Of a stretch of 64,000 nt of DNA, positions 5,167 to 64,000 are shown piece by piece. The translations under genes were made by a program, and so were the position numbers. This DNA comes from Chiloscyllium plagiosum (taxonomy: Eukaryota). The DNA lies in contig NC_057750.1 in NCBI RefSeq assembly GCF_004010195.1, positions 3,773,450-3,837,449 on the forward strand. Direction: 5' to 3'. Every line of letters begins with the position of its first letter. The first letter of the stretch is position 1. Under the pieces are notes generated by a model that was given only the letters and a program-made list of their open reading frames with translations, had not been told where the DNA came from and made no database searches.

Positions 5167-5361
5167 ATGTCAGACAGTCCCAAGCCCCGGCTGGTATCTC
5201 TATCACATCAGAAACTGCCTCTCACCCCCTTCGGATGTTTATGGATCCCGTGCAGTAACCGATTCGTTTGCCTGGGGACTGACTCCGGCTCTGGGGCACC
5301 AAGTCGGGGAATAATCGGCGTGTACGAGACAACAAGCGGAGAGATCAAAGACATACATACG
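5167..5361 (+). CDS. DNAAF10: DNAAF10-like exon 1 ([10 protein letters not shown]...[14 protein letters not shown]...EIKDIHT)
   Basis: ATG at 5167 in a CpG-enriched patch; WIPCS motif resembles WDR92 WVPCS; donor ACG|gtaact, phase 0, matches the next exon. Confidence 0.8.
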
Positions 5362-8300
5362 GTAACTCTTTGTTTCTCTTTTGGCTCTTCCACAATCCAC
5401 GTTGCAAACTGTTGGGGAAAAGATAAAGGGAGTGTTACAGGATGGTGGGGAACTTTACAATGTAGCAACGACCAAGATTTAATGATGCGATTGGCCAGCG
5501 AAATAATGGCTACATTGCAACCTTGTACAATGAGCGAAAGTGAGGACTACAGATGCTGGAGATGAGTCAAGATGAGAGTAGAGGAATGAGGATTCCTGAT
5601 GAAGGGCTCCTGCCTGAATCGTCGATTTTCCTGCTCCTCGGATGCTGCCTGACCTGCTGTGCTTTTCCAGCACCACTCTAATCTCGATCCTTGTACAATG
5701 GATTAATTGGTCCTGTTCCATTTGGCGAGAACCTGATCCTATTCTCGACCATTACAGCAGCAAAATTACTAAATTCGGTTGCTGGAAATCAGAGGGAAAA
5801 AAAAAACCCCAGAAAATGCTAGAAACTTTCGAGTGGTTAGACAACATCTGTGAGAAATAGAACTTATTGATATTTCAGGTCAATGACCTTTCATCAGAAG
5901 TGGAAGAAGTTCAGACAGAACATAAATTTTAAGATGGAAGGATATATATTCTCAATTTCCACTTGCACAAATGTGTCTGTTTCCACGACTCACGTTGACA
6001 AAAAGGTTTTAAGATTTGTTTCTTTCTTCCCTGAAGGCATTGGTTTCTTACCATGGCAACGTTCAGCCTCCACCTTACCCCCACTCCAACATGGCTTGAC
6101 ATTGGTCGAGCTAGATTTGGTCACTTTGTAGAGTGGATGGGGGAGGCCATGAAGGTAGAACTGGAAATCCAGCAGAATTGACAGGAATGGTGCTGGGAAT
6201 TACGGAATGCTGCTTCATCAATGCCATTCCCTACTTCATAAGGTCAGAGATGGGAATTTTCACTGTTGATTACAGTGTTTAACTTCATTTGCAACTGCTC
6301 GGATGCTGAAGCAGTCCATATCTGCCTGAAACAAGAAATGGACAAAATTCAGGCTTGGGCTGATAGTAGCAAGTAATTTTTCTATCATGCAAATGCAGAC
6401 AAAAGTGTCTCCAACAACAGAGAATCCAATCACACATCTTCAACAGTCTAGGTCATTGTTGTAAGTAAATCTGCAATAATTAGAATTCACAGTCACCAGT
6501 GACCAGAAAATGCCTGGACAAACCACACATATACTATGACTACAAGAGCAGATCAGAGGTTGGATATTCTGCAGAAAATGATCCACCACCTGACTGTTGA
6601 AAGTTTGTTCACAATCTACAAGCTACCAGTCAGGAGTATGAGGGAGCAATCAACACTTACCTAATTAATGCAGCTACAACAATATTCAAAAAGCTCAACT
6701 TCATCTAGAACTTGGCAATCTTTTTCAAAACTCATCCAGCAGCCTAAATATCCAACTTTTTCTACCTACCTACTAGAACCTGAGAGTTTTGGTCTGCATC
6801 TTCACAATGGGTAGTGCAGTTACCAGCTGAGCATATGATGATTAAACTTGCAGTGTAATAGCTACTGTATCAGATTACTTCCAACTGTTATATTGTTTTA
6901 GAAACACATGGAAGGAGATTGCATTATAAATATCTGTAAAACTGCTGTGCACATTCAAACCGAAGAGTGGCAAGTTGTATATGATCCATCTTTCCTGTTA
7001 ATTGAGAAATATGTAACTTTGCATATCTCTGTTTCCGATTTTGTTTTTGGAACATTCCGAGATGTTACACTAAGTCTGGAGGAAAGACAAAGATAAAAAT
7101 GATAAAATAACTTAAAATGTGTCAGTGGTTATTCCATCTCATTATTCTGCGGTTTTGCCTGAGATTTGCGTTTTTCTTTTTCTAATTAAAAGGGTGGTAA
7201 CTGTTTAAAGAAGTGTTGGAAAAAACACTTGCACTGTCCTCCACATTGCTTGCAGATAAGGTGACAATGATAATTTTATCTTTTTTGCTTTCACGGCCTT
7301 TATTCTTACCTTCTGTACTAACATTCGGCAATCTACAATTTCAATGAGATTTTTAATTCTTTAAAGAGATGTGGAAATCACTGGCAGGACCAGCACTTAT
7401 TGCCCACTTCTGATTGCCCTTGAGCTGTTGTGCTTTCAGAAAGCAGTTAAGAGTCAATCGCATTTCTCTGGGTCTGGCCAAACCAGGTAAGGGCAGCAGA
7501 TTAAAACAGATGCTGGAGAAATTCAGCATCTGCGGAAAGAGAAAGACAGAGTTAACATTTCAACCATTATTTTATTTCAGATTTCCAGCATTTGCAGGAT
7601 TATTAGCAAGTCAGTGTGCATGATTGAAACAGCAGATATTTTAGAACAATCAACAGGACTTCCATGTCCATTAGATTTTTATAAATTCTAACATTTATAT
7701 TGAATTAAAATTTCACTGTCTGCATGGTGAGATTTGAAACCACATCCCCACAGCATTAGTCTAGGTGGTCTACGTAACTAGTCTCAGTGACAAGCCCACA
7801 ATACCTCAACTTGCCCATTATTGACTTTGCTGAGTTATATATACAAGGGCTGAAAGAAACACTATATATGGCAGGCTTTCACTGCAGTACAGTTTTGAGG
7901 AAATGCTGCAATCTCAGAGATGTTGTCTGCCCTCTCAAGTGGACGTAAAGGTACATGGCTATTGAGAAGGTTTCCATGATATTTGGTCAATATTTATCCT
8001 TTTTACTGAAGGATAAATATTGTCACATTATCTCAGTGTTATCAGTGAGAGCTTGCTGTGCAGAAATTTACAGCCCTGCTTCTCACATTACAACAGTAAT
8101 TGAACTTGAAAAGGTACCTCAGTGACTGTGAAGCTTTGGAACACACTGAGGCCATGAAAGGTGGCATACAAATACAGGTCTTTCTTTTCACATCATTGCT
8201 GTTTGTGGGATCTTGCTATGTGCAAATCAACACATCACTTGTATGAAATGAGGTGACCATATCATGCTCCATGCCATTGTAATTTATCGTGATATTAAGT

Positions 8301-11300
8301 AGTTTTTGCGTTTGTAAATACTGTGATTGGGTGCTGTATAAACACAAGTCTTTCTTTTAGTATCAAAGAAGGTAAAGTTATAAAATTTCTTTTTTCCAGG
8401 ATGAGGCAAGGCAGACATTTTGTTACCCATTCTTAATTTGGAGATTAGTTACTCTTGTGAGTGTAGAAAAAGAAACGGAAGGTACAATTAATAAATTATT
8501 TGTTTATGTCTTTGTTAAAAAAAATGTTTTTAAAAATCCCAGTAACACAGTAACCCTCAGTCTGGAGGTTAAAGGAAGAGAAGATATTGGTACCATTCTG
8601 ATTATTAGGGTAGTGGTACTGAGTAAACTGATGACACTGCAGGTTGATAGGTTACTGGGTTATAATGGGCTTCACCTTTAAGTCTTAAAAGAAGTGGCTA
8701 ATGAGTTAATAGATGTGTTGGTGTTAATTTTCCAAAATGTGTCAATATTTCTATTCAAGAGGGATGGAGGTAGAAAAAAGGCAACTTTAGGCTGGTTAGC
8801 TTGACATTTGTCATTGAGGAGTTAGAATCAATTGTTATGGAAGTTATATCTGGGCACTTAGAAAAACCTAAGGTAATCAGGAAGAATTATCATGGTTTTG
8901 TGAAAGGGATGTTTTGTTTACCCATGTTGTTGAAATTCTTTGCAAGAGTAATACATATTGTGAATAAAGGGGAGCCCATTCATGGACTGTTCTTGGTTTT
9001 CCAGAAGGCATTTGGCAAGGTTCCACACAAAAGGTTACTGCACAAATAAAATTTCATGGTATAGGGGGTCATGTGTAAGCATAAATAGAAGACCGGCTGA
9101 CTGGCGGAAAATAGAAATTATGAATAAGTGAGACTTTTTCAGATTGGCAGGATCTGATGAGTGGGGTCCCTCAGGTTCTGTGCTGGGCCCTTAAACATTT
9201 ACAATATATACAGTTTGGGTGAGGGAATTAGAAGCACGGTATCTACATTTGCAAATGAGATAAAGATAGGTAAGAAAGTATGTTTTGAAGATGACATAAC
9301 AAGGAAAAAAGACTGATTTAAATAGTTTCATTGGACAAAGTCTGGTGGAACGAGCATAATGTAGGATAATTGTTCCCTTTGTCAGGAAAATAAAGAAGCA
9401 GAGTATTATTTAAACAGTAACAACTGCAGAATTTCAAAGTGCAGAGCAATCTAGTGTCACAAGCTACTCTTTTTTTAATCTAAAAGCTATTCCTTGGCTC
9501 AAGGATACCCTATCCTTGATTATTTTCAGAGGGGTAATAAACCAGGCCAGGCTCCAATCAGTCTGGTTTGGTACAAAAATGAAAAGGATTTTGAGAGGTG
9601 TTTTGTTTATATGTAAACAGGTGAGACTTCAGGCCAAAGTGGTCATGTATTAGAAGTGACCTGAATAAAGAAAGGGGAGTGGTCAGCTCTCTCGCTGAGC
9701 TGAGCAGTTTAGTTCAGCCTTTGAACTGGTGAGGAGTTCAACAGGGATCTGTGTGGAAACCCTCCCTTCAATGTCAACCTGTAAGCATGTGTTCTATTTA
9801 TGCTGGTTTTCAAAGGGAGTTTGCTTATTGGGACTATTATTTGGAACAGCATAATTAAGTCTAGTTTGGTTAGACTGAGTTCTGTAGGTGTTCTTTATTC
9901 TGTTCTTTGTGTTTCATTGTGTAATTTTGTGGATAAATTTTTGTCTGTTTTAAAATCTAGTAGTCAACCTAGCAAACTTTCACTGTACACTTACCGAAAC
10001 AAATTGCAAAGTTATGGTCTGAGCTGACTGCTTAAGAATGTTTTAAATGGTCTGGCTTAGTCCATAACACTAGATAGTACGATGCATGAGACACAATATG
10101 TTAGTATGCAAGTACAATGATTAAGAAGGCGAGCGGAATATATCCTTTATTATTTTGGTGAGACCACATCTCAAATACAGTGTACGGTATTGGTCTGTTT
10201 ATTTAAGGAAGAATGTAAATGCATTGGAGGTAGTTCAGAGGAGGTTTACTAGAAATATACCTGGAATGATACCTGGTTGACTTATGAGGATAGATTGAGG
10301 AGGCTGGGTTTGTTTTTGCATGAGTTTAGAAGAGTTGGGGTCAATTTACTCAAAGTTTATAAGATCCTGAATGGTCTTGACAAGGTAGACCTGGGTAGGA
10401 TACTAACTTTTGTGGGTCAGTCCACTTTTAAAATTAGGGATCACCTTTTTAGGACTGAGATTAGAAGTTTTTTTTCTCAGGCGATTGTGCAACTTTGGAA
10501 CTTGCCACCCAAGTTGATAGGATTGTTAAGAAGGTGTATGGTGTGTTAGCTTTCATTAGCAGGGGGGCTGAGTTTATGTTGCAGCTCTATAAAGCCCTGG
10601 TTAGAACACACTTGGAATATTGTGTTCGGTTCTGGTCGCCTCATTCTTGGAAAGATGTGGAAGCTTTAGAGAGGGTACAGAGGAGACCTAGCAGGATGCT
10701 GTGTGGCCTGGAGGGCATTTCTTATGAAGAAAGATTGAGAGAGCGAGGGCTTTTCTCATTGGAGTGAAGAAGAATGAGAGGTGACTTGATAGAGTTGTAC
10801 AAGATGTTGAGAGGCATAGGTAGACTGAATAGCTAGAGACTTTTTCCCAGGGCAGAAACGGCTATCATGAGTGGGCATAATTTTAAGGTGATTAGAGGAA
10901 GGTTACAGGTAGATGTCAAAGGTAGTTTTTTTTCACAGAGACTAGTGGATACGTGGAATGGACTGCTAGCGGTGGGAGTAGAGTCAGGTACATTAGGGAC
11001 ATTTAAGTGACTCTTGGATAGGCACATGGATGATAGTAAAATGAAGGGTATGTAGGTTAGTTTGATTTTAGAGTAGGATAAAGGATTGGCACAACATCAA
11101 GGGCTGAAAGGCCTGTACTGTGCTGTACTGTTCTAAAGCGGTGGAAACTCCGTCATTGAATATTTTGAAGGTATATAAAGAAAATAATGTTTTATTTTTA
11201 TCAGTCCTTTGCAGATTTCTTGAGTATTCACAATAATGAATAGGCCACCTATTTCAGTGCAATCGGTTGATGGATAAATTTATGTTCTCCCAAGAGAGAA

Positions 11301-14300
11301 AAGACCTTGGCTTAACATCTCATCCAAAAAATATTGCTGCATTCCCCCAGTACTGCCCTGGGAGTGACAGTCTCTGAAAATTGGTGTGATCAATTCTTGA
11401 TCCTTGAGTTGGTACAGCTCCAAATTCTCTCTGATCATAGCTTAGATTTAGGATGACTATTGCTATAATCCTGATTGATGTTCCTCAATTCAAATGGCCA
11501 GGATTTGCAAATTTGCAGTGATCTCCTTTGCTAAAACTCAACTGGCAATAATGATATGGCCAAGGTGGTAGCCAAACATTTATCTTCTAAATTTCACAGT
11601 GCATTAGCGCTCTGCCAGGTGGTGCTTTTCCTATTTCTCCAGGCTTACCAAATATTCCTTTTGCTTTGTAGATTGAAAAGCCCAGAGCTTTCAGGTGTGG
11701 GACATTTGGAGCCACCAGTCTACAGCAGAGGCACCTGGCAACAGGAGACTTTGAAGGCAATCTTCACATCTGGTAATAAGTTGGTTTGTTGAGTTGTTTA
11801 AAAAATGGAATTAATTGCTTAATAAAAGACTTCAAAATTGAAAGCCCTTCTTTCAATTCAAAAGCTGGCATAAAATCTAGTCTTACTAAATCCTAGAATG
11901 GTTGCAGAATGGAAGAAGGCCATTCTGTCCACTTTGTGCTGGTTTGTTGAAGGAGTAATTGAGCAAAGGACTATTCCAGATCCTAATCATTCGCTACACA
12001 GAAAATGTTTTTCTTTATTTCGCTGCTTATTTTGCCAATACCTTATATCTGTGCCTTCTGGGTCTTGATCCTTTCACCAATGAGAAGAGATTCACTCTGT
12101 CCATACCTGTCATTGTTTTGAATACCTCAAGTCTCCAATCATACTTCCCTTCCAGAGAGAACTGTCCCAATTGCTCCGTTCCATTTGTTTAATCTTTTCT
12201 ACGTAAAGCACTCATTCTGAGGACGATGGTTCCATGAACCAGATAGGATAAAGCCTATCTCTAGTACTGCACCAAGTGGCCATTTTATTTCTCTGAGTTT
12301 AGTGTTGGCTGATCAATTGTAAAGAACACAACAGCTTAATCTTGCCCTCTGACTACCTCACTTTGATAGGCCCACAAGAGAATATTCAGGAGCAGGAGCC
12401 ATTGCCTTTCCTAACTAAGCTTCCTGCCATCACAGTGACAGTCAATAAACTTTATACAACTAGGATAGTTATACCTGGATAGGACAGTTCAATGGATTAA
12501 AATATAAATACACAAGTTAGGACAGACAGATCAGGGGCAGAAGTAGGTCATTTGGACACTCAAATCTACCATTGTTCAGAGGATTTAAAAGATTCTTTCA
12601 TAGGATGTAATCATCATTGGATTTGTTGCCCATCCCTGACTGCCTTTGAGAAAGTGATGAGGTAAAAACAATGACTGCAGATGCTGGAAACCAGATTCTG
12701 GATCAGTGGTGCTGGAAGAGCACAGCAATTCAGGCAGCATCCGAGGACAGGCAAAATCGACGTTTCGGGCAAAAGCCCTCCTGATGAAGGGCTTTTGCCC
12801 GAAACGTCGATTTTGCCTGTCCTCGGATGCTGCCTGAATTGCTGTGCTCTTCCAGCACCACTGATCCAGAATTTGAGAAAGTGATGATGAGCTACCTTCT
12901 TGGCTGCAGTCTCTATGGTGTGGGTGCACCTATTGTACAGAGGTTTGGTACAACTGAGCTATGCCATTTCAGAGGACAGTTAAAAGCCAACCACAATACT
13001 CTGGGTCTGGTGTCATGTAGATCTGGCCAGGTAAGGACGGTAAAGTCCTTCCCTAAAGGGCATTAGTGAACAAGTTGAGTTTTTATGACAATCAGAAATA
13101 GCTTCATGATCATGATAAAAATCAATTTTCAATTCCAGTGTTGTAAAGAATCTGGATTTCACCAGCTGTCACATTGAAATTTGAAACAATGGAATGTCCC
13201 CAGAGCATTTGCCTTAATTAATTAACAGAGACACCTCTCTACCTTTTCCCTGACCTTCCTAAATGTCTTCTACCTTTCAGGTTCAATCCCATGTCTTCCT
13301 GCAGCCATGTCTCTGTAATGGCTACCAGAGTGGATTTATTTATTTATTTCTGTTTGTGCTCTTAGTTCATATGTTTTGCTTTGAATGCCTCACATATTCA
13401 AATGCAATGCCTTTACATTTACACCTTTATTCTTGATTCATATTATCTATCTCTTTCTGTCACAATCTGTTTATCATTTCTCATCATAATATCTTTCTCT
13501 TTGGCTTTCACTCTACTCTTTGATTTACCACAAGTGCCCTACATTTGATCACTTGGTTCACTATTCCCAGATGTGTAGTTAGCAAGAACACCAGCCCATG
13601 TACAGTTCAAATGGAGATCATTCCATCAGTACAGATCCCACTCCCCCTCCAGTAATTTAATGATCCAAAGATAGTGACCCTGTTCTGCTTCTTTAATGTG
13701 GCACCTGGCTCTTCTTACTGACAATACAGAACCTCCTGCTTTGACTTACCCATGATATTGGTACTTACATAGACCATGACAACAGAATCCTCCCCCTCCC
13801 ACTGTAGGTTCTTCTCCAGCCCTGAACAGCTATCCTGAACTATAGTACCCAACAGCAGCAAAGTTGTCTGGACTTGCACTCTTTGCTGGAGGACAATATC
13901 AATCTTCCTCACTGCACTGACCCCTAACACCACTAATATTCCTTTCTCCTTATCCGTTTTCCTTTACCACAGTGTGATGTTCAGTAGGCCCATCTATCCT
14001 ATGGCCCTCACCCTTAACCAAATAAGCTGAAATAATCTCAAACCTGTTGGACAATTGCAAATGCTGCCCTCTGAGTCCCCTTACCCACTTCACCCACAGT
14101 GACACCCTCCTGTCCTTGAATACTGACCAAATGAGACCAATCTTGAGAGGTATGACTGCCTCCTCACACATAAAATTTATCAAAATTCCCCTCTCCCTCA
14201 CGTGTCACTGTGTTTGTAGATGAATGTCCAGCTTATATGTCCAGTTTGAACTGCTTGATCTTCAAACATTTCCTGCAGATGTGTTTGCTTTGGACCAAAC

Positions 14301-17300
14301 TGGCATCCAGGACACATCGCCTGTCCTGCCTTCCTTAAGGTGTTCTATTGTTACTTACTTATTTTATTCAACCTTGTATTTACCAATTTTTAAAAATATA
14401 CTTCCTTAACATTCACCGGTTGCTATACTATGTCGATCCTTAGGAATAGAATAAATCTTAGTCACTTACCAGATAATCAGAGTAAAAATCAATTCCTGAA
14501 TACTGACATTGGTGAAGGTAAAAGCAAGGAGCACCTCTTTTCATTGCTCTCCTTAATTTCTTTTATAATTTAACTCCAGCATTCCGTTGTAAGTCACACT
14601 CAAGTGCTTAGTTCTCATTAAGTTGGATAGTTCAATATGCAGTATCTAGGAGTCATTATTCAAAATCAGAGTCCCACTGCTTATAGAAAATGTCTTTTGT
14701 GCCCCATGAGGAGTTCCCAAAACCTTTTAGCTTGACCTGGTTGGTCTCAGAAATAAAGATTAATCACCCAGAAACCCCCCAGGAAGCAGCTGCATCAGAC
14801 AGATGTACAACAAACAGAAGATGCAGGCCCCATCTGGGATGCAATGAAATTCCAGAAAATGATGCAAGGAATAGTGCAGTTTCTGAAGGAATATGTGTGG
14901 CCACCACTGATTCAACATGAGGGTGGGCCAGATCAAACTGGGAGGTCATGTGATGTGAAATCTTAGGTTAAATCCAGATAATAACAACAACTTTATTTAT
15001 GTAGCATCTTTGTCTTAATAAGGGGGTTTCAACTCAACAGTAATAGGGACAGCTATCATTCTCTCCTGCTACATGAAAATGTGAGTATGAAAGCACCTAA
15101 AAACTCACTTGTTGTCACTCCACAGGAACTTGGAAGCATCTGAAACTCCCCTCTACTCAGCCAAAGCACATCAAGAAATCATTAACTGTATTGATGGTGT
15201 GGGTGGGCTTGAAAATGGACATGGGGCCCCAGAGATTGTCACTGGCAGCAGGGATGGTGAGTACTTCTACAAATAGTATGCACTGGAACCAGACAGGAGA
15301 TAAAGACTTTTCTTTAATGTTGCTTGAAAGGATATTGAGAGCAGATTCACAAAGAGGAATTGAAAAGGAGAAATTTGCAAGTTTGGGAATCAAGAAGGGT
15401 GTGCGACCATTTGGATAGCTCTTTTAAAGAGCTGACACAAAGCACAATGGGCTGAATGGTCTCTTGTGAATCTCTAGCATTCTATGAAATCAAGGCTTGG
15501 CACTATTCTTTATCCTAAACCTGGGATCTTAAACTATCTAAATTGCAGATTCTGAAAATCTGAAATAAAAACAGAAAGTGTTGAAAGTATTCAACAGGTC
15601 AGGCAGCAAGGATCTGTAAAAAGAGAAGAACCAAGGCAATGTTTCAGATGATTAATTTCTTGTCAAACTAGGTAGCCCTTTCACTTCCTTCTTTCTACAA
15701 ACCACGTGCATTTAAAAGAAAAAAACTACAGATGCTGGGAATATGAAATAAAACCAGAAAACTCAAAGGTTAACTTTGTGTCTCTATCCAAAGACACTGC
15801 CAGGCCTGCTGAGTTTCTCCAACATTTTCTGTTTTTATTAAGAGCTTTAAAAACCCAGATTTAAGAAACAGGGCCAAAAACTCAGCAAATCTGCCCCTTT
15901 GGGTGAAACATATCAAAAAAGGTCATGTTATTAAACAATGTAAATGAGTGCCATTGCTAATCAAAAATTTTGATCAATTAGCAGATAATGTTCCCAACTA
16001 CTTACACAACTGCATTATTTGTGATGATCTGTATCAATTTGAAATGTTCAGCAGATAGTGTCAGAGGCTCCCATACTAACACAGATTTTCCACCAAAATA
16101 TAATCCACACCTTTTCTTGAGGCTCTCCTACATTTTGACCTCGTCTTCATAGTTCCATCTTCCATAATTTGCAGCTTATTTGAAAGGCCTCAAGTTCTCA
16201 CCCATCCAGAATTCCATAGTTCCATCGCTGGGTCAATATTGATGAAATCCTATCCTTACAGTACTTTGGGTGTTCTGACACACCAAGGATGCAGTGGTTT
16301 AAGAAGGCAGTCACTACTACCTTCTCAAGGGCAATTAGTAATGGGTAATAAATGCTGGCCCAGCCACATCCCTTCAGTGATTTCTTTTTAAAAACAAGAC
16401 TCCCAGACATGAGGGTGCAATGGTTTCTTATGCCCTTTCAATTTAGTACAACCTCATTAAGAGACCAACAGTCAAACATGCACCAGTTTTAAAGTGGCAC
16501 CAGCAAAAGCAGCCTTGTTTTAGACTTTTGCTTAAGGCTAACATCACTGACAATGTAACATGCTCTGTGTATCACACCTGTATGTCTCCCTGATCCAGAA
16601 TATTCAAGTTACCACAGTATATTGTTTCAGTCCGTGTTACACTTATTCCCAGAAAAATGTGACAGAAAGAGAGTAACTAGATAGCTCTATCAAAGAATCA
16701 ACATAGGCACAATGGGCCAATTAATCACTTAGAATCATATAGTCCTACGGCACAGCAACAGGCCCTTTGACCCAAACTGGTCCATGCCAACCAAAATGTC
16801 TGGCCACACTTAACCCCATTTCCCTGCCCATATCCTTCTAATCCTTTTCTATCCAAGTATTTGTCCAAATGTCTTTTAAATGTTGTTAATGTACCTGCCT
16901 CAACTACTTCTGCTGGCAACTCATTCCATGTGCGTACCACTCTCTCTGGTTTCCTTTTATTCTTTCCTCTCTAACCTTAAACTGATGCCCTCTCGACCTT
17001 GATTCCCCAACCTTGGGAAAAAAACTGAAAAAGGCATTCACCCTATCCATGTCTCTCATGATCTTATACACCTGTATAAGGTCCCCCTCAGTCTCCTAAG
17101 CTCTCAAGAAAAATGTCCTAGCTTATCCAACCTCTCCCTATAACTCAGACCATTGAGTCCAGGCAACATCCTTGTAAATCTCTTCTGCACTCTTTACAAT
17201 TTAATAACATCTTTCCTATAGCAAGGTGACAAAACTGAACACAATACTCCAAGTGTGGCCACACCAATGTCCTATACAATTGCAACATAACTTTCCAACC

Positions 17301-20300
17301 TCTATACTCAATACCCTGACTGATGAAGGCCAGTGTGCCAAAAGCCTTCTTCACAGCCCTGTCTACCAGGGACTCCACTTTCAGAGAACTGTGCACCTGA
17401 ACTCCAAGATCCCTCTGTGGCACTACACTCCTTAAGGCCCTACCATCCACCATGAAACTCTTACCATGACTTGATTTTCCAAAGTGCAAGACCTCACACT
17501 TATCTATATTAAACTCCATCTGCCATTTCTCAGCCCACTTCCCCAGCTGATCAAGGTCCTGCTGCAATTTCTGATAACCTTCCTCACTGTCCACGATACA
17601 ACCTATTTTAGTGTCATCAGCAAACTTACTAATTATGCCTTGTGCATTCTCATCCGAATCATTGATATAGATAACGAACAGTAATGGGCCCAGCATCGAC
17701 CCCTGAGGCACTCCACTAATCGCAGTCCTCCAGTCCGACAAGCATCCTTCCACTATTACCCTGTATTTCCTACTGGCAAGTCAATTATGTATCCAATTCA
17801 CCAGCTCACTCTGGATTCCATGCCATCTAACCTTCCAGCGCAGCCTACCTTATGGAACTTCATCAAAGGCCTTACTGAAATCCATATAGACTACATCTAC
17901 CACCCTGGCCTTGTCAACCTTTCTGGTCACTTAATCAAAGAACTGTAACAAATTTGTGGGGCATGATCTCCCACTCACAAAACCATTCTAACTACTCCTA
18001 ATCAAACCCTGTTTTTCCAAATGCATGTATATCTTATCCCTCAGAATCTTCTCAAGTAACTTACCTACCACAGATGTTAAACTTACTGGTCTATAGTTCT
18101 CAGGTTTTTCTTTGCAACCCTTCTTGAATAATGGCACAACATTCACTACCCTCCAATCTTCCGGGACCTCACCCTTGGCTAATGATGATGCAAAAATGTC
18201 AGCCAGGGCCCCCGCAATTTCTTCTCCAGCCTCTTGCAGTGTTCTTGAATATATCTGGTCAGGATCAGGAAATTTATCCACCTTCAATCATTCTAATACT
18301 TCTAACACCTCCTCTACTGTGATATGAACCCAAGATATCACCACTAACTTCCCCAAGTCTTCATATCTTTCTCCATGGTAAACACAAAGGAGAAATATTC
18401 ATTAAGAACCTCACCCATCTCCTACGGTTCCAAACATTCATGTCCACTTTGGTCCTTGAGGGGTCCTATTCCCTCTAGTTAATCTTTTTCTTTTAATAAA
18501 TTTAAAGTGCCTCTTTGGATGCACCCTAATCTTATCAGCCAAGGCTATCTCATGCCCCCTTTTCGCCCTCCTGATTTCTTTCTTCAGTAAACTTTGTGAG
18601 ATTCTGTAACTTTCTGTAGTTATCACCAGAACATATCTGGTATTTTACTTTGAATGAATGAATAGTGCTCTTGCCAAACTTCCAGTCCCATTATTATTAA
18701 ACATGTAAAAATATTAGGCATTTTGATGGATGGGAATGTATTTATGGTCACAGTATCCTCAAGATACAGAATTAGAATCAGAGCGAGATAAGGAGAAAGT
18801 TTTTTTTTGTGCTGAGTTGTTGTGATCTGGAATTCTCTGCTGAAAAGAGCAATGGAACAAGATTCAATCATAGAGTCATAGAGATGTACAGAACGGAAAC
18901 AGACCCTTCAGTCCAACACATCTATGGCGACCAAATATCCTAATCTCAAGAAAAAACCACGACAAGCAGACCAAACACAGCCAGAAACCCTATCCACCTT
19001 ACCATACATAAAAGAAGTTTCAGAAATGACAGCCAGACTACTAAGACCCCTCGGAATCCTAGTAGCACACAAACTCACCAACACTCTCAAACAAAAACTA
19101 ACAAACTTAAAAGACCCAGTACAACCCATGGACAAAACCAACGTCATCTACAAAATTCCATGCAAGGAGAAAATGAACAGGAAATGACATCACCACAAAC
19201 CCCAGGAACCCTATCCAGGACAAACCTATAAATAGAAAACAGGAGACAGTTTCGCTTCACTTGGAGGTCGCCACTGATGATGTTACCTAGCCAGGTAATG
19301 AAACATCTGGATATCAAACCTACAGCTCAGCGAGCAAACTTACACCCTATATCCAAATCTAATCTAGTCCCATTTGCCAGCACTTGACCCTCTAAACCAT
19401 TCCTATTAGATTAGATTCCCTACAGTGTGGAAACAAACCCTTCAGCACAACAATTCCACACTGACCCTCTGAAGAATAACCCACCCAGACCCATTCCTCT
19501 ACATTTACCCCTGACTAATGCACCTAATATACACATCCCTGAACACTACAGGCAATTTAGCATGGCCAATTCACCTGACCTGCACATCTTTGGATTGTGG
19601 GAGGAAACCGAAGCACCCGGAGGAAACCCACACAGACACTGGGGGAATATGCAAACTCCACACAGTCACCCGAGGTTGGAATTGAACCCGTGCTGCCCCT
19701 ATTCATATACCCATCCAGGTGTCTTTTAAATGCTGTAATTGTACCAGCCTCCACCACTTTCTCTGGCAGCTTATCCCCTACATGCACCACCCTCTGTGTG
19801 AAAAAGTTGTCCCTTCGGTCCATTTAAAATTTTCCCCTCTCACTCTAAACTTATGCCCTCTAGTTCTGGACTCCCTCACCCCAGGAAAAAGATCGTCTAT
19901 TTATTCTTTCCATGCCCCTCATGATTTTATAAACTGATATAAAGTCGCCCCTCATCCTCCAACGCTCCAGGGAAAACATCCCCAGCCTATTCAGCCTCTC
20001 CCTATAGCTCAAACCCTCCAACCCTGGCAACATCCTTGTAAATCCTTTCTGAACCTTTTCAAGTTTAACAACATCCTTCCGAAAGGAAGGAGACCAGAAT
20101 AGCACGCAGTATTCCAAACGTGGCCTAACCAATGTCCTGTACAGGCGCAAGTGAGGACTGCAAATGCTGGAGATTAGAGTCGAGAGTGTGGTGCTGGAAA
20201 AAACACAGCAGGTCAGGCAGCATCCGAGGAACAGGAAAATTGACATTTCGAGCAAAAGCCCTTCAAAGTAAAAGCATCAATATCCTGTACAACCTTACCA

Positions 20301-23300
20301 TGACCTCCCAAATCCTATGCTTAATGCTCTTAGCAATAAAGGAACGCATACCAAACGCCTTCTTCACTATCCTATCTACCTGCGACTCCACTTTCAAGAA
20401 ACTATGAACCTGCACTCCAAGGTCTCTTTGTTCAGCAACACTCCCAGGACCTTACCATTAGTGTATAAGTCCTGCTAAGATTTGCTTTTCCAAAATGCAG
20501 CACCTCACATTTATTGAAAGCAAACTCCACCTGTCACTCCTCAGCCCATTGGTCCACCTGATCAAGAACCTGTTGTACTGAGGTAACCTTCTTTGCCCCA
20601 ATTTTGGTGTCATCTGCAAACTTATTAACCATACCTCCAATCACAAGTTCGAAAAGGGATATTGGAAAGTGGAATGGGGAATGAATATAAGAGCAGAGGT
20701 AATCATAGGCTGACACAAGGATCACAGGGTGTGTAATCTTTGTGTTGTATTGTCATTTAAAATGGATAAACAGAAAGTAAGAAGTCTGAGTCAAAACAGA
20801 ACCGAGTTATCTGGACTTTGATAGTAAGAGCTAACAGGCTGCTCTCTTGCTACATGTTGGAATGAATTTATGGCCCAATTCCTGGCATGGATGTTGATAA
20901 CACAATGTTTATGCTTTGAAGCTATCTACTGAGCCAAGCTGACTCAGGCTGGTTCAAGAGCTGATAACCCATGAAGCAGCACTTTATTGGGTTAGAAGGA
21001 GTTTGGAAGGCAGTGTGCATGTGGATAGGCAATGAAGAATAGCAGACACTTGTGACCTCCTGAGTCTTGTACCTTCTCTCCCAGGTACAGTGAAGGTCTG
21101 GGATTCACGGCAAAAGGACCTTCCTGTGGCCAACATGGAGCCTGCAGTAGGATTCAACAGGAGAGATTGTTGGACAGTTGCTTTTGGTAAGTTGCAGCTC
21201 ATAGAATCTGCAACACTGTTCACAATACATGCCACACATTTACATCCACATCCTTAAAGAATGTTTGTTTTGGGCTGGTTTACAGGCCACTCATGCACCC
21301 AGTGGGACCGCTGTGTTTGTGCCGGATATGACAATGGGGATATTAAACTATTTGACTTACGAAACATGGAAGTGCGATGGGAGACAAACGTCAAGAGTGG
21401 GGTGAGTTGAGTGATTTGGTTCTCATAGAGTCATACAGCACGGAAATAGACCCTTCAGTCCAATCAGTCCCTGCCAACATAATCCCATACAAACCTTACC
21501 TGCCTGCTGCTGGCTCATTTATGAGCTTCATTAACTTTAGCTCCCATTCTGAGCTGAGCTAGTGCATTTCAACTGAGGCAGCAATGGAGGTTGAAGCCAG
21601 ATGTACTTCCCCGCTGTTCAGTTCAGTTAAGCCTGCATGGACATGGGATTGCTATCCAGGGTCAGTCACAGTACTTTGCCTCTGTGTCATAGGGTCCTGG
21701 ATTCAAGTCTTAGTCCAAAGATATGAACACATAGTCTAAGCCAACAATTCAGTGGAGTACTGAGGGTGTGCAGCACTTTTGAAAGTGCTGTTTTTTGGAT
21801 GGGATATTAAGCCATCAAAGCCTGCTCTCTGTGGTATTTTGAAAAATGGGATTTCTGCCCAATTTTTATTGTAAAGTAATATAATTAACAGAACCTGAAT
21901 ATCACTGAGAAACACACTTTATTGAAACTTTTCATCCTGCACTCATCAGGACAATTCTCAAGGAATACCGATGTAAAAGGAAAACAACATTTTTACTGTA
22001 TGAGTGCTGATTGGTTGGAAAGTGGAGTCCAATCAGCTTTCTAACTGGTGCACACACCCTGACAGTGCATGTACCAATTAGAGTCCATTTGCCAAACAAT
22101 CAACATGTACACTATAAATGTTGATTTCCCTGAATATTGGCATTTCTTCCAAATTGTCCTGATATGTGCAAGTTGAAAATCTACAGCAAAGGTTTTTTCT
22201 CAGCAAAAAAAAAGTTTGTTAACGGTTATGATTAGATTAGATTCCCTACAGTGTGGAAACAGGCCCTTCGGCCCAACCAGTCCACACCGACCTTCCGAAG
22301 AGTAACCCACCCAGACCCATTTCCCTCTGAATGATGCACCTAACACTATGGGCAATTTAGCATGGCCAATTCACCTGACCTGTACATCTTTGGATTGTGG
22401 GAGGAAACCCACGCAGACACGGGGAGAATGTGCAAACTCCACACAGTCAGTTGCCCGATGCTGGAACTGAACCTCGGTCCCTAGTGCTGTGAGGTAGCAG
22501 TGCTAACCACTGAGCCACCCTGCTGTTTATGGGAGCTTTCAATGTGTAAATTATCTTGTGATTCCCACATTGCAGAAATAACTACATTACAAAAATACTT
22601 GATCAATCATAAAGATACACGGGATCTATTGAGGCTGTAAAAATGCTATATAAAGGCATGTTTGTTTCTTCACTGGCTCTTGTTTAAAAGGTGCTGTTTC
22701 TGAACACCTGAGAAGTATAGAATTGAGCTGAGATGGCATGTCCCCAGTGATCAATGTTTTTGCCAATGGTCATCTGTGATCACAGATTGGAAAAAGTGGC
22801 CATTTGATCACAGCTGTAAGGATATTATTTATACAAAATGTGGCTGAGCAAATGAACTAACTATGGTTTGCAGCTGATTAAGCCAATAATTTTATTTTAA
22901 CATTAACTCTGGGGTAGGTTTGCTGTGTAGAGTTTGATGGAAAGGACATAAGTTTGAACAAACTGGTGGCAACGACGTTGGAAGGAAGGGTCCATGTCTT
23001 CAATATGCAGAAGTATCACAGAAACAGTGGCTTTACCTGTCGGAGTGAGAAGGTAAGATGCTGTTGGGTGGAATTGATACAATAATACAATTGTACAGTT
23101 ATGTAAAGCTCTCATCAGACGCTAATTTGGAGTAATGGCGTTCAGGTTTGGGCATTGCACTTCAGGAGGTAGATATTGGAGAGGATGCAGTGTCAATTTA
23201 CCAGAATGTTTGGACTAATGGGTAAATTATTACGGTGGGTTGCACATCAGGACTTGTTCTCCTTTGAATATAAAAGATTAAGGGATGTTCTAATTGAAGT

Positions 23301-25999
23301 TTTTAAGATGGTTAAATAAGTTAATACAGTGGCAAATATGAAATATATTTTATCTGGAGGGGAGGGGTCCAAAAGAAAGTGGACTAATATTAATATCAGT
23401 CAAAGCTAGGGCTTTCATGGGTGATTTCAAGAAAAAGTTTTGTCACTTAAAGTGGAAATCTGTAACTCTTTCCCTAGAAAGTGTTTGAAGCTGGGTGTCA
23501 AGTGAACATTATACAAATTAGATTGAGAGAATTTTGGTAGTTCAGGGTATAATGGGATGGAAAACCAAGTTGAATAAATTATGTGATTGAAGTGAAGGAC
23601 ATAGGGAGAGGTTGAATAGGCTGGGTTGGTTTTCCCTGGAGTGTTGATGCTGAGGGGTAACCTTGTAGAGACTTATAGAATCATGAGGGGGATGGATAGG
23701 GTAAATAGAAAAGGTATTTTCCCTGATGTGCGAGAGTCCAGAACTAGAGAGCAAATGTTTAGGGTGAGAGGGGAATGATTTAAAAGAGACCTAAGGGGCA
23801 ACATTTTCACACAGAGGGTGGTGCATGTATGGAATGAGCTGCCAGAGGAAGTGGTGGTGGCTGGTACAATTACAGCATTTAAAAGGCACCTGGATGGGTA
23901 TATGAATGGGAAGGGTTTAGAGAGATATGAGCCAGGTGCTGGCAAGTGGGACTAGCTTAAATTAGGATATCAGGTCAGCATGGAAGGGTTGTGCCGAAGG
24001 ATGTTTCTGTGTTGTACATATGTACGACTCGTTACCTGAAATGTCTCAAGAAGTAATGAGGGCCTCAAGGAAGCCATATTAGGATTTGCAGCTTAGATGA
24101 GTTTGCTAAGTGATGCATTGTGTCATTGAGTGCCAAGCATATCTTAATTGCTTTAGGGAGTTAAGGAAGAAATCCCATTATTCTCATAATCCACCAGGTT
24201 CTCTTGAAATCAGACAAAATTTCTTGTTGTTACTTCTATTAGTTGCTTTGATTTTTCAGGAATCTTGTGAATGAGAAATGCTGAGTGGGTCATATGTTCA
24301 CATTCCAGTTTTACAAACAATTATGTGTCTTTTGCATTTAATAATTTTAGAACTAGATTTAGAATGAACAGTTTTACTAATCAAGACAGCACCAAGTTAG
24401 TATTTAATAATGCAGGATTCAGTATTTCTTTGTCAGGCTGGACGCTATCAGATTGTTCCAGCATGTGGAACATCCAATAAAAGTGACATTTCTTTATTCC
24501 ATTTGTACTTCCCTGCAGTCCCAGAAACCTGGCCAGTTCAGGGCTCTGTGTCATTTTAGTGCTAACAGTGCTGCTCTTCAAAGTTAGTATCATAACCCCA
24601 TAAAAGCAGTCTCAGAGTCAAATGCACCATTCACTAATTCATCCTTTGTTCTGTATGTTGTTATTTACTAGCAATCTTCAATGATGCTTGCAACTTAAAC
24701 CAAAGATTCTAGACTCGAACTGCCATTTTACTAGGATCCCTGTCAATCCTATAATTTAATGGAATTTTCAAAACCTAAACTTGCCTAAGTACTTTGTTCC
24801 TTCTCAAGATCAATCTGTACAATGGTCGTTTCACCTTATTTCAGTTATTTGCTACAAAGAAGATCACAATGACCTTTAATGTTTGTAAGTGGACTTCTTC
24901 CAATCTGTCTCCACAAACTGCTTGAAGTTGTACAGAGCAACCCTTTGTCACAGGGCAGTCCTCAGCTGACAGAAATACACATTTTCATTTTATTTCCAGG
25001 TCTGAGAGGGAGATGTTAAAGGCATCCAAAATTTGAAATTTTGTGCAGTACAAACTCATCAGAAGCTACTAATTTACATTTTTTTCTATTTTTAAAGCCA
25101 TACAAATTTACAGCTTGGGTGGTGCGGCATTTGCCTCAAAATCGAAGTATCTTCATAACAAGTGGAGGAGCCGGCTGCCTTCACCTGTGGAAACAGTAAG
25201 TGGGTGTAACTTGCATCTTCATGAGAGCTGATGTCAGAGGTATGCATATGTCACAGCAGTGTACTGGCCAGTGTAAATGTAGGCATTTGTTTGTAATTAC
25301 AATGAATGCATGTCCATGACTTAGATTGATCATTCAAGAGACAGCCAGTACCCTAAAGAGACGAATGTGCAATTGTTCTGACTCCATTCATTCTCCCTGA
25401 ACAATTGGATTTTAGAGGTCATTTATTAAAACATAAGCAAAAGGAAGAGATAAATTTAAAGATTTATGGTGATGTAAGGGATGGGTATAAAGATAATTAA
25501 AATTATTTGTTTCAAATATCCCTCCTTTCTCACTCTCCTGCCATAATTCAATTTGTAGGTTCACCCAGTTGGACATCAGATTGTTCCATCATGTGGTACA
25601 TCCAGTAAAATTGGCATTTCTTTATTCAATATGAGCGCTTCCCTGGAGTCCCAGAAACCTGCCCAGCTCAGGGCTCTGTTGTTCTAGTGTTACTCTGCAA
25701 AGTTAGTACCATAACCTCATAAAAGCAGTCCGAGTCAATCAGAATATTCATGGATTCATCTTTTGCTCTGTATGTTGTTATTTACCAGCAGTGAATCTTT
25801 AACGATGCTTGATAGAAGTGACCATGAACCAGATGACAAGATTTCAACATGTACCACCACACTGCTGAACAACATCTCCCTCTCATCTCAACCCATTGGT
25901 AGCCTGGATTGGAATACTGATAAGCAAGGACTCTGTATCTCTGCATCCTTTGATCATAATGTTCACATCCTCATGATCACAGAGCAGCAGAGTTTCTGA
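5167..25999 (+). CDS. DNAAF10: DNAAF10/WDR92-like WD40 dynein axonemal assembly factor, 8 coding exons: join(5167..5361,11672..11772,15126..15256,21085..21186,21286..21401,22918..23052,25098..25195,25792..25999), about 361 aa
   Basis: All introns are GT..AG, phases are consistent, and 1086 nt = 362 codons including the stop. Motifs [60 protein letters not shown] and QPIGSLDW match WDR92 as recalled. Confidence 0.9.
5533..5688. mobile_element. Fold-back Penelope-type terminal-repeat insertion (family A) with 12-bp TSD
   Basis: TSD ccttgtacaatg at 5521-5532 and 5689-5700. Confidence 0.7.
5866..5900 (-). ncRNA. Minimal hammerhead-like motif (family D), partly decayed
   Basis: UU-CUGAUGA-A-AGGUC auu GACCU-GAAA-UAUC-AA; perfect stem II. 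Confidence 0.45.
8460..10500 (+). mobile_element. Degraded CR1/HER1-type LINE ORF2 fragment (split by the LTR)
   Basis: HGFVKG...[14 protein letters not shown] (8801..9049), GVPQGSVLGP-like sequence at about 9160, [11 protein letters not shown] (10277). Confidence 0.8.
9455..10069 (+). mobile_element. Solo LTR (TG...CA, 615 bp, 4-bp TSD CTAG; Gypsy-like) interrupting a CR1 RT fragment
   Basis: ctag|TGTCAC...ATAACA|ctag; CR1 RT sequence resumes after it. Strand is assumed. Confidence 0.7.
10505..11135 (+). mobile_element. CR1/HER1-type LINE 3' fragment
   Basis: [19 protein letters not shown]...[14 protein letters not shown]; tail ...ggcctgtactgtgctgtactgttcta. Confidence 0.85.
11672..11772 (+). 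CDS. DNAAF10: DNAAF10-like exon 2 ([34 protein letters not shown])
   Basis: Acceptor ttgctttgtag|, donor TG|gtaata; strong WDR92 similarity. Confidence 0.92.
12661..12872. mobile_element. Young fold-back Penelope-type insertion (family A): perfect 85-bp inverted repeat, 16-bp TSD
   Basis: Arms 12695-12779 and 12788-12872 are exact reverse complements; TSD tttgagaaagtgatga at 12645-12660 and 12872-12887. Confidence 0.85.
12779..12810 (+). ncRNA. Minimal hammerhead ribozyme motif with intact core (family A)
   Basis: UC-CUGAUGA-A-GGGC uuuu GCCC-GAAA-C-GUC-GA; palindromic ACGU stem III (dimer type); stem I cut to 2 bp by the inversion junction. Confidence 0.6.
15126..15256 (+). CDS. DNAAF10: DNAAF10-like exon 3 ([27 protein letters not shown]...[11 protein letters not shown])
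   Basis: Acceptor ctccacag|, donor G|gtgagt; phases 2/1 fit. Confidence 0.92.
16728..18620 (-). mobile_element. CR1/HER1-type LINE, 1.9-kb 3' portion with RT domain
   Basis: [21 protein letters not shown] (17988..18287) and [20 protein letters not shown]...KFADDTKIG (17145..17753); frameshifted. Confidence 0.92.
18947..19348 (+). mobile_element. Penelope-like element fragment (RT-linker/GIY-YIG start plus terminal repeat) inserted in a CR1 3' end
   Basis: [21 protein letters not shown]...[10 protein letters not shown]; 12-bp TSD atatcc(t/a)aatct at 18935-18946 and 19349-19360. Confidence 0.8.
19271..19310 (+). ncRNA. Minimal hammerhead ribozyme motif in a Penelope terminal repeat (family C)
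   Basis: CCA-CUGAUGA-U-GUUACCU agcc AGGUAAU-GAAA-C-AUC-UGG; 3-bp stem I, 7-bp stem II; the sister copy 26869-26908 (-) retains CGUC-UGG. Confidence 0.65.
19407..19696 (-). mobile_element. HE1/V-SINE-type SINE (head partly deleted) inside CR1
   Basis: Family consensus match. Confidence 0.8.
20144..20277 (-). mobile_element. Short Penelope-type terminal-repeat insertion (family A) in CR1, 14-bp TSD
   Basis: TSD caat(g/a)tcctgtaca at 20130-20143 and 20278-20291. Confidence 0.7.
21085..21186 (+). CDS. DNAAF10: DNAAF10-like exon 4 ([19 protein letters not shown]...[10 protein letters not shown])
   Basis: Acceptor ttctctcccag|, donor G|gtaagt. Confidence 0.92.
21286..21401 (+). CDS. DNAAF10: DNAAF10-like exon 5 ([38 protein letters not shown])
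   Basis: Acceptor tttacag| after a 99-nt intron, donor GGG|gtgagt. Confidence 0.92.
21905..22204. mobile_element. About 300-bp imperfect fold-back element with hammerhead-like motifs in both arms
   Basis: ctgagaaa...tcatcaggacaatt...aacattt is inverted relative to aaatgtt...aattgtcctgat...tttctcag. Confidence 0.55.
22231..22524 (-). mobile_element. HE1/V-SINE-type SINE
   Basis: Full head-to-tail copy, (atcta)n tail. Confidence 0.85.
22918..23052 (+). CDS. DNAAF10: DNAAF10-like exon 6 ([30 protein letters not shown]...SEK)
   Basis: Acceptor ggggtag| (weak pyrimidine tract), donor AAG|gtaaga; 135 nt, phase 0/0. Confidence 0.9.
23100..24030 (+). mobile_element. Two CR1-type LINE 3' remnants (old 23100-23560; younger 23600-24030)
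   Basis: gagaggttgaataggctggg...ttcacacagagggtggtgcatgtatggaatgagctgccagagg CR1 3' consensus. Confidence 0.75.
24447..24690 (+). repeat. Diverged direct duplicate of 25575..25811 (intron 7 / exon 8 junction of the DNAAF10-like gene)
   Basis: Colinear blocks atcagattgttcca, agtcccagaaacctg, cagggctctgt, cataaaagcagtc, ctgtatgttgttatttac, gatgcttg. Confidence 0.85.
25098..25195 (+). CDS. DNAAF10: DNAAF10-like exon 7 ([32 protein letters not shown])
   Basis: Acceptor ttttaaag|, donor CA|gtaagt. Confidence 0.9.
25792..25999 (+). CDS. DNAAF10: DNAAF10-like exon 8, terminal (…[45 protein letters not shown])
   Basis: Tandem acceptor cagcag (alternative start 25789); TGA ends at 25999; resembles the WDR92 C-terminus LSTQPISSLDWSPDK. 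Confidence 0.88.
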
Positions 26000-26156
26000 A
26001 CACACCAGTGAAGAGCACAGGAGCTGAGGACAGAATGGAATCATTGTCAATGCTTGAAATTTCACACGAGTCAATGGACACATCAAGATTCTTATCAGGG
26101 AAAAAACACTCTCAGGACGTGACAAAGTAGTAATGTTATATTAGGGTTTATACTGT

Positions 26157-26162
26157 AATAAA
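26157..26162 (+). terminator. Candidate polyadenylation signal of the DNAAF10-like gene
   Basis: First AATAAA, 158 nt after the stop codon, with T-rich sequence downstream. Confidence 0.55.
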
Positions 26163-26829
26163 GAAGTTGAATTATTCCATTTCATTATTTTGCCAAGTAT
26201 TTGGAATAGCAAAGTGGATTTAAATTCCACTCAATGCTTAGTGAAAAAGGATATGCAATAGAATACCAAAATATTGCCAATTATGCCCAAATTATTTCCA
26301 CTCTTAAAATTCACTTGTGTGGCACATACATCTCTGAATGGCCAACATTTATTTCCTGTCCCTTGCTGTCCTTGAGATGGTGGTGTGGGCTGCCTTCTTG
26401 AACTGCTGCAGACCAGGTCTGTGGGTAGGTCCACAATGCCACTGGGAGGGAATTCTAGGGTTTTGACCCAGCGACAGTGAAGGAATAGCAATATATTTCC
26501 GAGGCAGGCTGGTGAGTAGCTTGGAGGGGAACTTGCCAGGGGTTTCCGATGTATCTGCTGCCCTTGTCCTTCTAGATGGAAGTAGTGTGGCTTTGCAAGA
26601 TGCCAAGGACATACTTCTCAAATGATAATAAACACAAAGTTATTAAATGGAGAAATGTGTAGCTCCTGGTAATTATAGGGCTATAGCAGCTGGATTGTAC
26701 ACCAACAGTCAAACTGCTGCTGCCTTTGTGGGGTTAGCTTCCAAATAGCGCGTGCGCACACACAACTTTTTACTGCAACAATTTGATAGGTTCCACCTTT
26801 ACCCTGTACAGAATAATGTTAGAGAGATT

Positions 26830-32025: not shown

Positions 32026-32323
32026 TTACTCTGCACTGTTGACAGGGGACTGCTCCCGAGAACCAGACCAGGAACGGGTCGATTTAACAGGAGAATTTGA
32101 TCGCGACCTCGACTGGGTTGGTTTCCTACGACGTTTGACCTCAGGCGAACGGCTCAGTGAGCGCGATTCATTCCTCTGCCGCTTGCTATCACGAGCGGGC
32201 GACCTGCTCCGGGAACGAGACCTGCTACGGCTTGGGGAGCGGCTTGCAGATCTTGAAGCGCTTCTAGAGCCCTTATAGCTGCGGGATCTTGAAGAGCTTC
32301 TAGAGCGGGATCGTGTCCAAGAC
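32026..32323 (-). CDS. SRSF5: SRSF5-like terminal exon, RS domain ([15 protein letters not shown]...SPVNSAE*)
   Basis: Acceptor tttttcag|, RS-dipeptide-rich frame, TAA ending at 32026. Confidence 0.93.
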
Positions 32324-48208: not shown

Positions 48209-48366
48209 GCTGCAGGGGCGGCGTTGTGACGTCAAGGATATGTTTCCCCACCTCCGCTGTCAATCACAAGCTTCACCCCGCCCCCTCCCTCGTTACTGTC
48301 GATCAACACACTGGATGTGCCAGGCCCAATCATTCCCCTCACTGCCTCAACCTAAAAACATGGAAA

Positions 48367-63352: not shown

Positions 63353-64000
63353 GTACGTTTCTGTCTCTCGGTTATTCTGCAGGATAACAAGACTGAACAT
63401 TAGAATGTCACTAACATTTTCTCTCTCCTTTTTCTACTGAAGTCAGGAACTGTTATTGCTTTCATAGTATCCAGCCCAAGAGGCCACTCATCATATGTTC
63501 AGTCCACATAAAACTGTTGACAGGCTATTTGAATGTGAGGATACTCCACATCACAGCATGATCCTATTTTTATTGAGGTTTCTTTGTTGAACAGCAACTG
63601 ACTCACTTTGAATTTTCATTCCTTAGATTTGGGGTATGAACATCAAATTGAGAGAAGCAAAGCATAATGATGGTATTACTAGAATAGTGTTTCAGACACC
63701 TGGACTAATGATCCAAAGACACTAGCTCAAACCACACTACTGCAGCATAAGGAGATTAAATTCCATGAATTATTTCTTTTATTTCACTCACGGGATATGG
63801 TTGTCACTGGCTGGGCCAGCCTTTACTGCCCATCCCTCAGCGTCTTACTGTGGGTTTGGAGTCATGTGTAGGCCACACCAGGTAAGGATGGCAGATTTCC
63901 ATCCCTAAAGGACATTGGTGAACCAGATGGGTTTTCTGGCAGTTGACAAGTTTCATCGTCAATATTAGACTCTTAATTCCAACTTTGTATTGAATTCAAA

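Follow-up and report, generated by a model that had tools for sequence, protein, structure and literature searches.

The genome of the shark Chiloscyllium plagiosum contains two genes of the type WDR92 (DNAAF10, Monad), which serves in assembly of the ciliary motor and is normally single-copy, and the second, analysed here, lies at positions 5167-25999 (+) of a 64,000-nucleotide stretch of chromosome C41 (NC_057750.1, positions 3,773,450 to 3,837,449 of the forward strand; hereafter the window). This gene is a paralogue at a separate locus, and its relatives in sharks and rays form a clade of their own. Its sequence, gene structure and predicted fold place it in the WDR92 family, and it fails to show one feature of that family, the conserved protrusion. 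Since the gene is already annotated in RefSeq, its novelty resides in its origin and in a one-sided remodelling of the encoded propeller. The reading that we lean towards is that of an ancient whole-genome duplication (WGD) ohnologue which is predicted to have the same propeller and to keep the surface that docks URI1, has lost the conserved protrusion and likely serves as an exchangeable adaptor.

A second WDR92 gene at its own locus

A genome search with canonical shark WDR92 returned 16 exon matches at two loci only, eight on C9 and eight on C41, in the window; these chromosomes measure 105.9 and 20.4 Mb, respectively. The C9 gene (102,636,999-102,654,790) translates exactly into the annotated canonical protein (P0160), and upstream of it lie PNO1 (PF22891; PDB match PNO1) and PPP3R1, the latter located by means of the EF-hand portion of fused annotations. 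Such annotations, in which an EF-hand (PPP3R1-like) part is joined to WDR92, occur in bony vertebrates (P0014, P0019, P0021, P0028, P0036, P0044, P0046, P0057 and P0067) and are probably read-through models of neighbouring genes. Grouping with canonical shark WDR92 and adjacency to PNO1 and PPP3R1, which would identify the 1:1 orthologue, were found for the C9 gene and not for the window gene. The sequence-only reading of the window had proposed a second paralogue, and this was borne out; the more conserved copy is indeed the one beside PNO1 and PPP3R1.

The window gene has eight exons, as had been predicted, with seven introns that are all GT..AG and an open frame of 362 codons closed by a single terminal stop. 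Exon 1 (5167..5361) starts with the ATG, encodes the closing strand of blade 7 together with blade 1, and is three codons longer than its canonical counterpart. Exons 2 (11672..11772, blade 2) and 3 (15126..15256, blades 2-3) are conserved, exon 4 (21085..21186, blades 3-4) contributes to the edge predicted to bind a URI1 strand, and exon 5 (21286..21401) encodes blade 4. Exon 6 (22918..23052) carries blade 5 and the first protrusion hairpin (strands 20/21), which is rewritten; exon 7 (25098..25195) encodes blade 6; and the coding part of exon 8 (25789..25999) supplies the second protrusion loop (strands 24/25), also rewritten, blade 7 and the stop. The 3′ untranslated region (26000..26177) has an AATAAA at about 26157, and a spliced contig terminates at 26177. 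All of these features are on the plus strand.

All intron phases are equal in the canonical and paralogue genes, as are the lengths of six of the eight exons, and the retention of every intron shows that the paralogue is not a retrocopy; the open frame and spliced contigs likewise give no sign of a pseudogene. Identity between the two proteins of the shark is 59.9%, whereas the canonical protein is 89% identical to that of a chimaera, 82% to that of a bat and 76% to that of amphioxus. Silent sites between the two shark genes are saturated (proportion of silent differences, pS, 0.775; of replacement differences, pN, 0.247). Identity to the shark canonical protein is 38, 76, 77, 79, 67, 64, 72 and 42% in exons 1 to 8, which marks the first and last as the rewritten ones and agrees with the earlier description of exon 1 as heavily rewritten.

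The window product is identical over 362/362 residues to P0122 (RefSeq XP_043536691.1, 'dynein axonemal assembly factor 10-like', Chiloscyllium plagiosum), and the gene is therefore already in the databases. Evidence for splicing, from paralogue reads only, covers the exon 7-8 joint (25195>25789), present in transcript contigs from two runs, and the end of exon 6, which is the loose end of one spliced contig. A tandem CAGCAG acceptor at 25786-25791 allows exon 8 to start at 25789, giving 362 residues, or 3 nt downstream at 25792, giving 361; both forms are in RefSeq for several species, and the two transcript contigs aligned here use 25789. The replacement sequence reported earlier for one conserved motif is real as a change, but its 'HESLTML...' corresponds to the shorter acceptor form and the spliced transcripts read HSESLTML. 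In intron 6, positions 24447-24690 (+) are a 79% copy, over 250 columns, of 25575-25811, which comprises the end of intron 7 and the first bases of exon 8. This copy has an acceptor-like TAG, and no further copy was found in the window or the examined C9 region. Capture of exon 8 from an intronic repeat was considered and ruled out; the start of exon 8 aligns collinearly in the canonical gene and in every paralogue, so that the segment in intron 6 most likely represents a partial duplication of local origin.

One-sided divergence and a predicted URI1-docking surface

Across 91 canonical animal proteins, 200 alignment columns reach a conservation of 90% or more, and we compared these with 13 paralogue rows. 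The paralogues keep 145 of these columns, and the losses are strongly one-sided: blades 2-4 retain 86/90, all positions outside them 59/110, and the WDR92-specific protrusion, counted within the 110, a single one of its 18 sites. Canonical conservation is about equal between the regions (0.97-0.98). Among the 55 lost columns, 36 are relaxed, being variable among paralogues, and 19 are fixed for a new residue. The blade boundaries were picked after inspection of the alignment; a sliding-window shuffle test is boundary-free, although its window length derives from them, and 0 of 20,000 shuffles reached the observed clustering, with or without weighting by canonical variability. The paralogues lose 12-17 protrusion sites, compared with 0-3 in those canonical proteins that have diverged most. 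In the reading that we lean towards, the rewriting was a single burst that preceded the separation of sharks from rays, after which the protein was largely frozen.

The strongest single change is loss of the MRTQHP..GFAS hairpin, found in 84 of 91 canonical proteins and in no paralogue row; the sequence-only reading, whose list of altered motifs was otherwise real, had omitted it. Y.YP is similarly confined to canonical proteins (90/91 against 0/13), and PY[KR] to paralogues (13/13 against 0/91). EFDR is invariant in the canonical set and present in one paralogue row, with EFDG in 8/13 and 0/91 of paralogue and canonical sequences, respectively. The proposed replacement of WDPRQ (87/91 canonical, 2/13 paralogue rows) by WDSRQ holds for 11 of the 13 rows and is thus not fixed. 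A count of the motif G[VI].G matched a different site and was uninformative. According to PMC4831875, WDR92 has a single large protrusion formed by loops 20/21 and 24/25, the second of which is among the more divergent regions across human, planarian and alga. In the paralogues this second loop has an acidic motif of its own that is kept across species.

A model of the paralogue built from a 104-row alignment (predicted local distance difference test, pLDDT, 85.6) is a seven-bladed propeller of 28 strands, with the protrusion loops present and residues 298-310 below a pLDDT of 50. Its best PDB match is human WDR92 (3I2N; template modelling score 0.89-0.94, E 1e-44 as against 2e-17 for the next), which is also the top PDB match by sequence. 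The paralogue resembles known WDR92 (3I2N; PMC4831875, PMC6028525, PMC6821370) in its eight exons with equal phases, its 28-strand propeller, its near-invariant blades 2-4 and central pocket and its predicted URI1 site, and differs from it in a rewritten protrusion (strands 20/21 and 24/25), closing strand, blade-1 loop and C-terminus, in adjoining CCDC97 and not PNO1/PPP3R1, and in sharing only about 60% of its residues with the canonical protein encoded in the same genome.

R2TP and the URI1 prefoldin-like module are both known associates of WDR92 (PMC6028525, PMC6821370, PMC12633730, PMC13153604). For the human proteins, a proteome-wide prediction gives the URI1-DNAAF10 pair a score of 0.998 and puts their contact in the disordered tail of URI1 (PMC13478489). 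We predicted the complex of the paralogue with one tail exon of shark URI1, picked by guess among several, without alignments. The docking scored 0.91 by the interface measure ipSAE, compared with 0.00 for the best of three controls, with a contact agreement between runs of at least 67% and a partner pLDDT of at least 55. The source gene, located on C17, is presumptively URI1 by its sequence. In the predicted pose IKTPADIY occupies the central pocket and NTTLKFSE runs along the blade 3/4 edge; together they constitute a predicted bipartite WDR92-binding motif at L055:1799-1942 (-) on C17. The docking mark was reached by 51/78 solved and 2/108 mismatched microbial pairs, and by 39/65 novel solved and 2/126 unrelated eukaryotic pairs, a calibration that does not cover peptides or disordered chains. 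Proteins closely related to a true partner reach the mark as well, which counts against a literal reading of the result, and the pass accordingly supports URI1 binding without showing it. By sequence search no similar complex is found in PDB, where the URI1 piece has no match and the sole solved WDR92 structure is the free protein.

Conservation fits the predicted pose. Thirty of the 38 predicted interface residues are deeply conserved columns, and the paralogues keep 27 of these, as against 118/170 elsewhere (p 0.025). The same tendency is seen outside blades 2-4, where the predicted interface keeps 9 of 11 conserved residues and other positions 50 of 99. No protrusion residue is among the listed predicted interface residues. 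The paralogue is thus predicted to keep the URI1-docking surface. It had been suggested from the letters alone that interactions with R2TP/prefoldin or in dynein assembly were altered; a surface has been lost, but a different one from the site predicted for URI1, the prefoldin-like partner.

Possible functions of the paralogue

Canonical WDR92 would link the URI1 prefoldin-like module to R2TP and to dynein clients; it has been described as a bridge between R2TP and that module (PMC12633730), although the relevance of the prefoldin-like link to dynein assembly is disputed (PMC6028525). The protrusion and the blade 7/1 side of the canonical protein, which are nearly unchanged from invertebrates to mammals, would likely bind a second partner, be it RPAP3, SPAG1 or a dynein client. 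The paralogue would sit on the same URI1 site and show a different second face. Having dropped the second-partner contact, it would likely act as an alternative or competing adaptor on URI1, either uncoupling the module from its canonical RPAP3, SPAG1 or dynein partner or redirecting it to other clients, and would likely not be a spare dynein-assembly factor. More tentatively, we propose that it may be a 1R-age alternative PAQosome subunit of sharks and rays (1R and 2R being the first and second rounds of WGD), competing for one URI1 motif and switching the module away from R2TP and dynein assembly. If so, the pair would constitute a natural separation-of-function experiment that maps the two binding faces of WDR92, with the central pocket and blade 3/4 edge as the URI1 face and the protrusion and blade 7/1 side as the R2TP/dynein face. 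Two points detract from the adaptor reading: the literature found does not name a binding partner of the protrusion, and expression of the paralogue appears low, with four raw RNA reads at its 3′ end, in one of two raw runs, among 13 million records.

The main rival explanation gives the paralogue the same origin and makes it a tissue-restricted dynein-assembly factor, for example in sperm, with a rewritten face suited to other clients. In flies, sperm and neurons need WDR92 for dynein arms and prefoldin-like subunits are dispensable there (PMC6028525), and both the 19 conserved columns newly fixed in the paralogues and the acidic motif of the second loop would fit a face with a new role. The excess of relaxed over newly fixed columns is more like loss than gain, however, and the skate paralogue promoter is a bait in the supplementary interaction table of a fin-development study; we therefore regard this alternative as somewhat unlikely.

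Exchange of subunits by paralogues has precedents in R2TP-like chaperones, where RPAP3/SPAG1 and PIH1D1/2/3 exemplify duplicated subunits that would give alternative chaperone assemblies (PMC6821370, PMC5974087). Unlike these, the WDR92 paralogue is lineage-restricted, and the available parts of the two papers mention no WDR92 paralogue. As a natural variant in which one face is predicted to be preserved and the other has been given up, the paralogue points to the roles of the two surfaces and offers ready-made chimeras.

Origin, distribution and genomic surroundings

In a quick-search tree of 55 proteins, from which isoforms, fusions and unnamed rows were excluded, 15 paralogues form a single clade (Shimodaira-Hasegawa-like approximate likelihood ratio, SH-aLRT, 100) outside the 13 chondrichthyan canonical copies (clade support 99). 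The paralogue stem is long, 0.81 in this tree or 0.62 under LG+G4, compared with 0.04-0.05 for the chondrichthyan canonical stem. Approximately unbiased (AU) tests of seven fixed trees under three models prefer a placement outside all jawed-vertebrate canonical copies and reject the paralogue as sister to elasmobranch canonical copies or to the chimaera alone (p ~0.01 in the three models); on the slower residues 66-242 the elasmobranch-sister placement is rejected at p 0.0015 and the overall pattern is unchanged. The preferred placement is not separated from two 1R placements, and duplication on the chondrichthyan stem has a p of 0.15-0.19 in the tests of the seven trees. In a small set of informative sites, the paralogue shares none of five that are chondrichthyan-derived.

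Paralogy also extends to the chromosomes. The MEIS, RTN and SERTA families, three of four ohnologue families searched, each have members on C9, C10 and C41; on C9, the distance to canonical WDR92 is 0.95 Mb for MEIS and 2.2 Mb for SERTA. For the SIX family the genome search gave five matches on C9 and C10 and none on C41, where SIX5 may have been lost or missed. A published reconstruction assigns MEIS1/RTN4 to quad 3A and MEIS3/RTN2/TGFB1 to quad 3D, in a ((A,B),(C,D)) arrangement split at 1R (PMC8040251). From the flanking genes we infer that C9 is 3A and C41 is 3D; the pairing of chromosomes is taken from that source, our own RTN and MEIS exon comparisons being too short to pair them. The paralogue is thus probably of WGD origin, with 1R likelier than 2R. 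An ohnologue had been the earlier proposal as well: chromosome-level paralogy and rejection of an elasmobranch-only origin make it well supported, and it is unproven, since a duplication on the chondrichthyan stem survives the AU tests (p 0.11-0.19).

Several further observations weigh against a 1R origin. The 1R, 2R and cyclostome-sister placements are inseparable in the tree (delta logL <1), and the long paralogue stem is prone to long-branch attraction. At nine sites derived in jawed-vertebrate canonical proteins the paralogue shares three and is ancestral at one, which leans later than 1R. As PMC8040251 itself states, another study arrives at a different pairing for paralogon 3. Finally, no further paralogous pair is apparent between 174 kb of C41 and 200 kb of C9 among the output listed. 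Local gene order is often lost after WGD.

These observations bear on a further rival, in which one gene or a segment was duplicated on the stem of the chondrichthyans or of the jawed vertebrates and the copy came by chance to lie on a chromosome belonging to the same paralogon. Such an event is left standing by the AU tests, agrees with the apparent lack of shared neighbours, and calls for fewer losses, since a copy of 1R age would have had to disappear from chimaera, bony vertebrates and cyclostomes alike. We nevertheless consider it unlikely, and a shade more so than a dynein-assembly role: the best trees place the paralogue outside all jawed-vertebrate canonical copies, no chondrichthyan-derived residue is shared, the complete set of introns means it is no retrocopy, and a copy placed at random in a 3.6-Gb assembly would be unlikely to hit a paralogous microchromosome of 20 Mb.

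Homologues were collected by single-sequence and profile searches (best 120 of 1118 and best 120 of 1360 matches) and cluster look-ups, and the named matches listed are nearly all WDR92/DNAAF10, the remainder being hypothetical or unnamed. When 208 retrieved proteins longer than 200 residues were scored against paralogue and canonical profiles, they split cleanly with no intermediates; 48 were of paralogue type, 35 of them named and all from sharks or rays, and 13 unnamed, in a skate cluster. Among the matches listed and the cluster look-ups, named paralogue proteins occur in 17 shark and ray species. In protein lists, as distinct from genomes, and with the proviso that very distant copies could escape, no copy turned up in chimaera, in bony vertebrates or in cyclostomes, and we narrow the earlier description 'kept in cartilaginous fish' to sharks and rays. 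The same lists contain no named paralogue for catsharks, zebra shark or Rhinoraja, in which named canonical proteins exist. The shark paralogue is 79% identical to that of skate. In skate, about 30 kb of Leri_38C separates the bins that hold the Wdr92-1 and Ccdc97 baits (PMC10115646 supplement), which indicates that the CCDC97 neighbourhood is common to shark and skate.

After the burst on its stem, the paralogue evolves roughly 2-5 times faster than the canonical gene (eight shark/ray species pairs). Together with the few RNA reads and the species lacking a named copy in protein lists, this rate might suggest a redundant copy in slow decay, an explanation that is most improbable given full-length or near full-length products named in 17 species, losses that are clustered instead of random, and 86/90 conserved sites kept in blades 2-4 despite saturated silent sites. 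A second WDR92 locus, splicing, and conservation between sharks and rays also run counter to the outcomes that the sequence-only reading had named as grounds for abandoning its proposal.

Ohnologues retained by sharks are a known class: PMC10115646 counts 19 that cartilaginous fish have kept and bony fish have lost, with wnt6b and cspg5 among the retained ohnologues. Like these, the WDR92 paralogue is a second copy on a small paralogous chromosome, evolves faster and is not found in bony vertebrates; unlike them, it is not found in chimaera either. It would bring a chaperone gene into the set of ohnologues retained by sharks and lost in the lineage leading to humans. WDR92 is not in the main text of that paper, and in the available portion of its supplement it appears only as the symbols Wdr92-1 and Wdr92-2 in data tables. 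The main text of the whale shark paper and the listed rows of the PMC8040251 supplement contain no match, and we found no published description of a shark WDR92 paralogue in a search that left subscription journals and bioRxiv supplements outside its scope. The paralogue is thus annotated in RefSeq yet apparently undescribed.

The neighbours of the paralogue had been given as CCDC97 and an SRSF5 paralogue. CCDC97 (54689..63384, +) is confirmed by a PF09747 match in the 63085-63384 exon, with the ORF at 54689 assigned by position only, and extends past the window end. The other neighbour is a two-RRM SR splicing-factor gene of the SRSF4/5/6 type (32029..46213, -), tail to tail with the WDR92 paralogue, whose best PDB match is SRSF6; the name SRSF5, given from the N-terminus, is presumptive. 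Its best paralogue in the genome is 85% identical, on C10, where three close paralogues stand in tandem at 74.58-74.63 Mb (74-85% in the first exon), and another is on the unplaced contig C98673. The SR gene may be another ohnologue retained on C41. The SR gene and CCDC97 point away from each other, and a CpG island that lies between them at 47400-48300 (GC 0.57, observed/expected 1.1) is likely a promoter common to both. Intron 2 of the WDR92 paralogue holds, at about 12680-12880, a near-perfect inverted repeat (about 184 bases, 96%), in which a short repeat element seems to be present as two copies that face each other.

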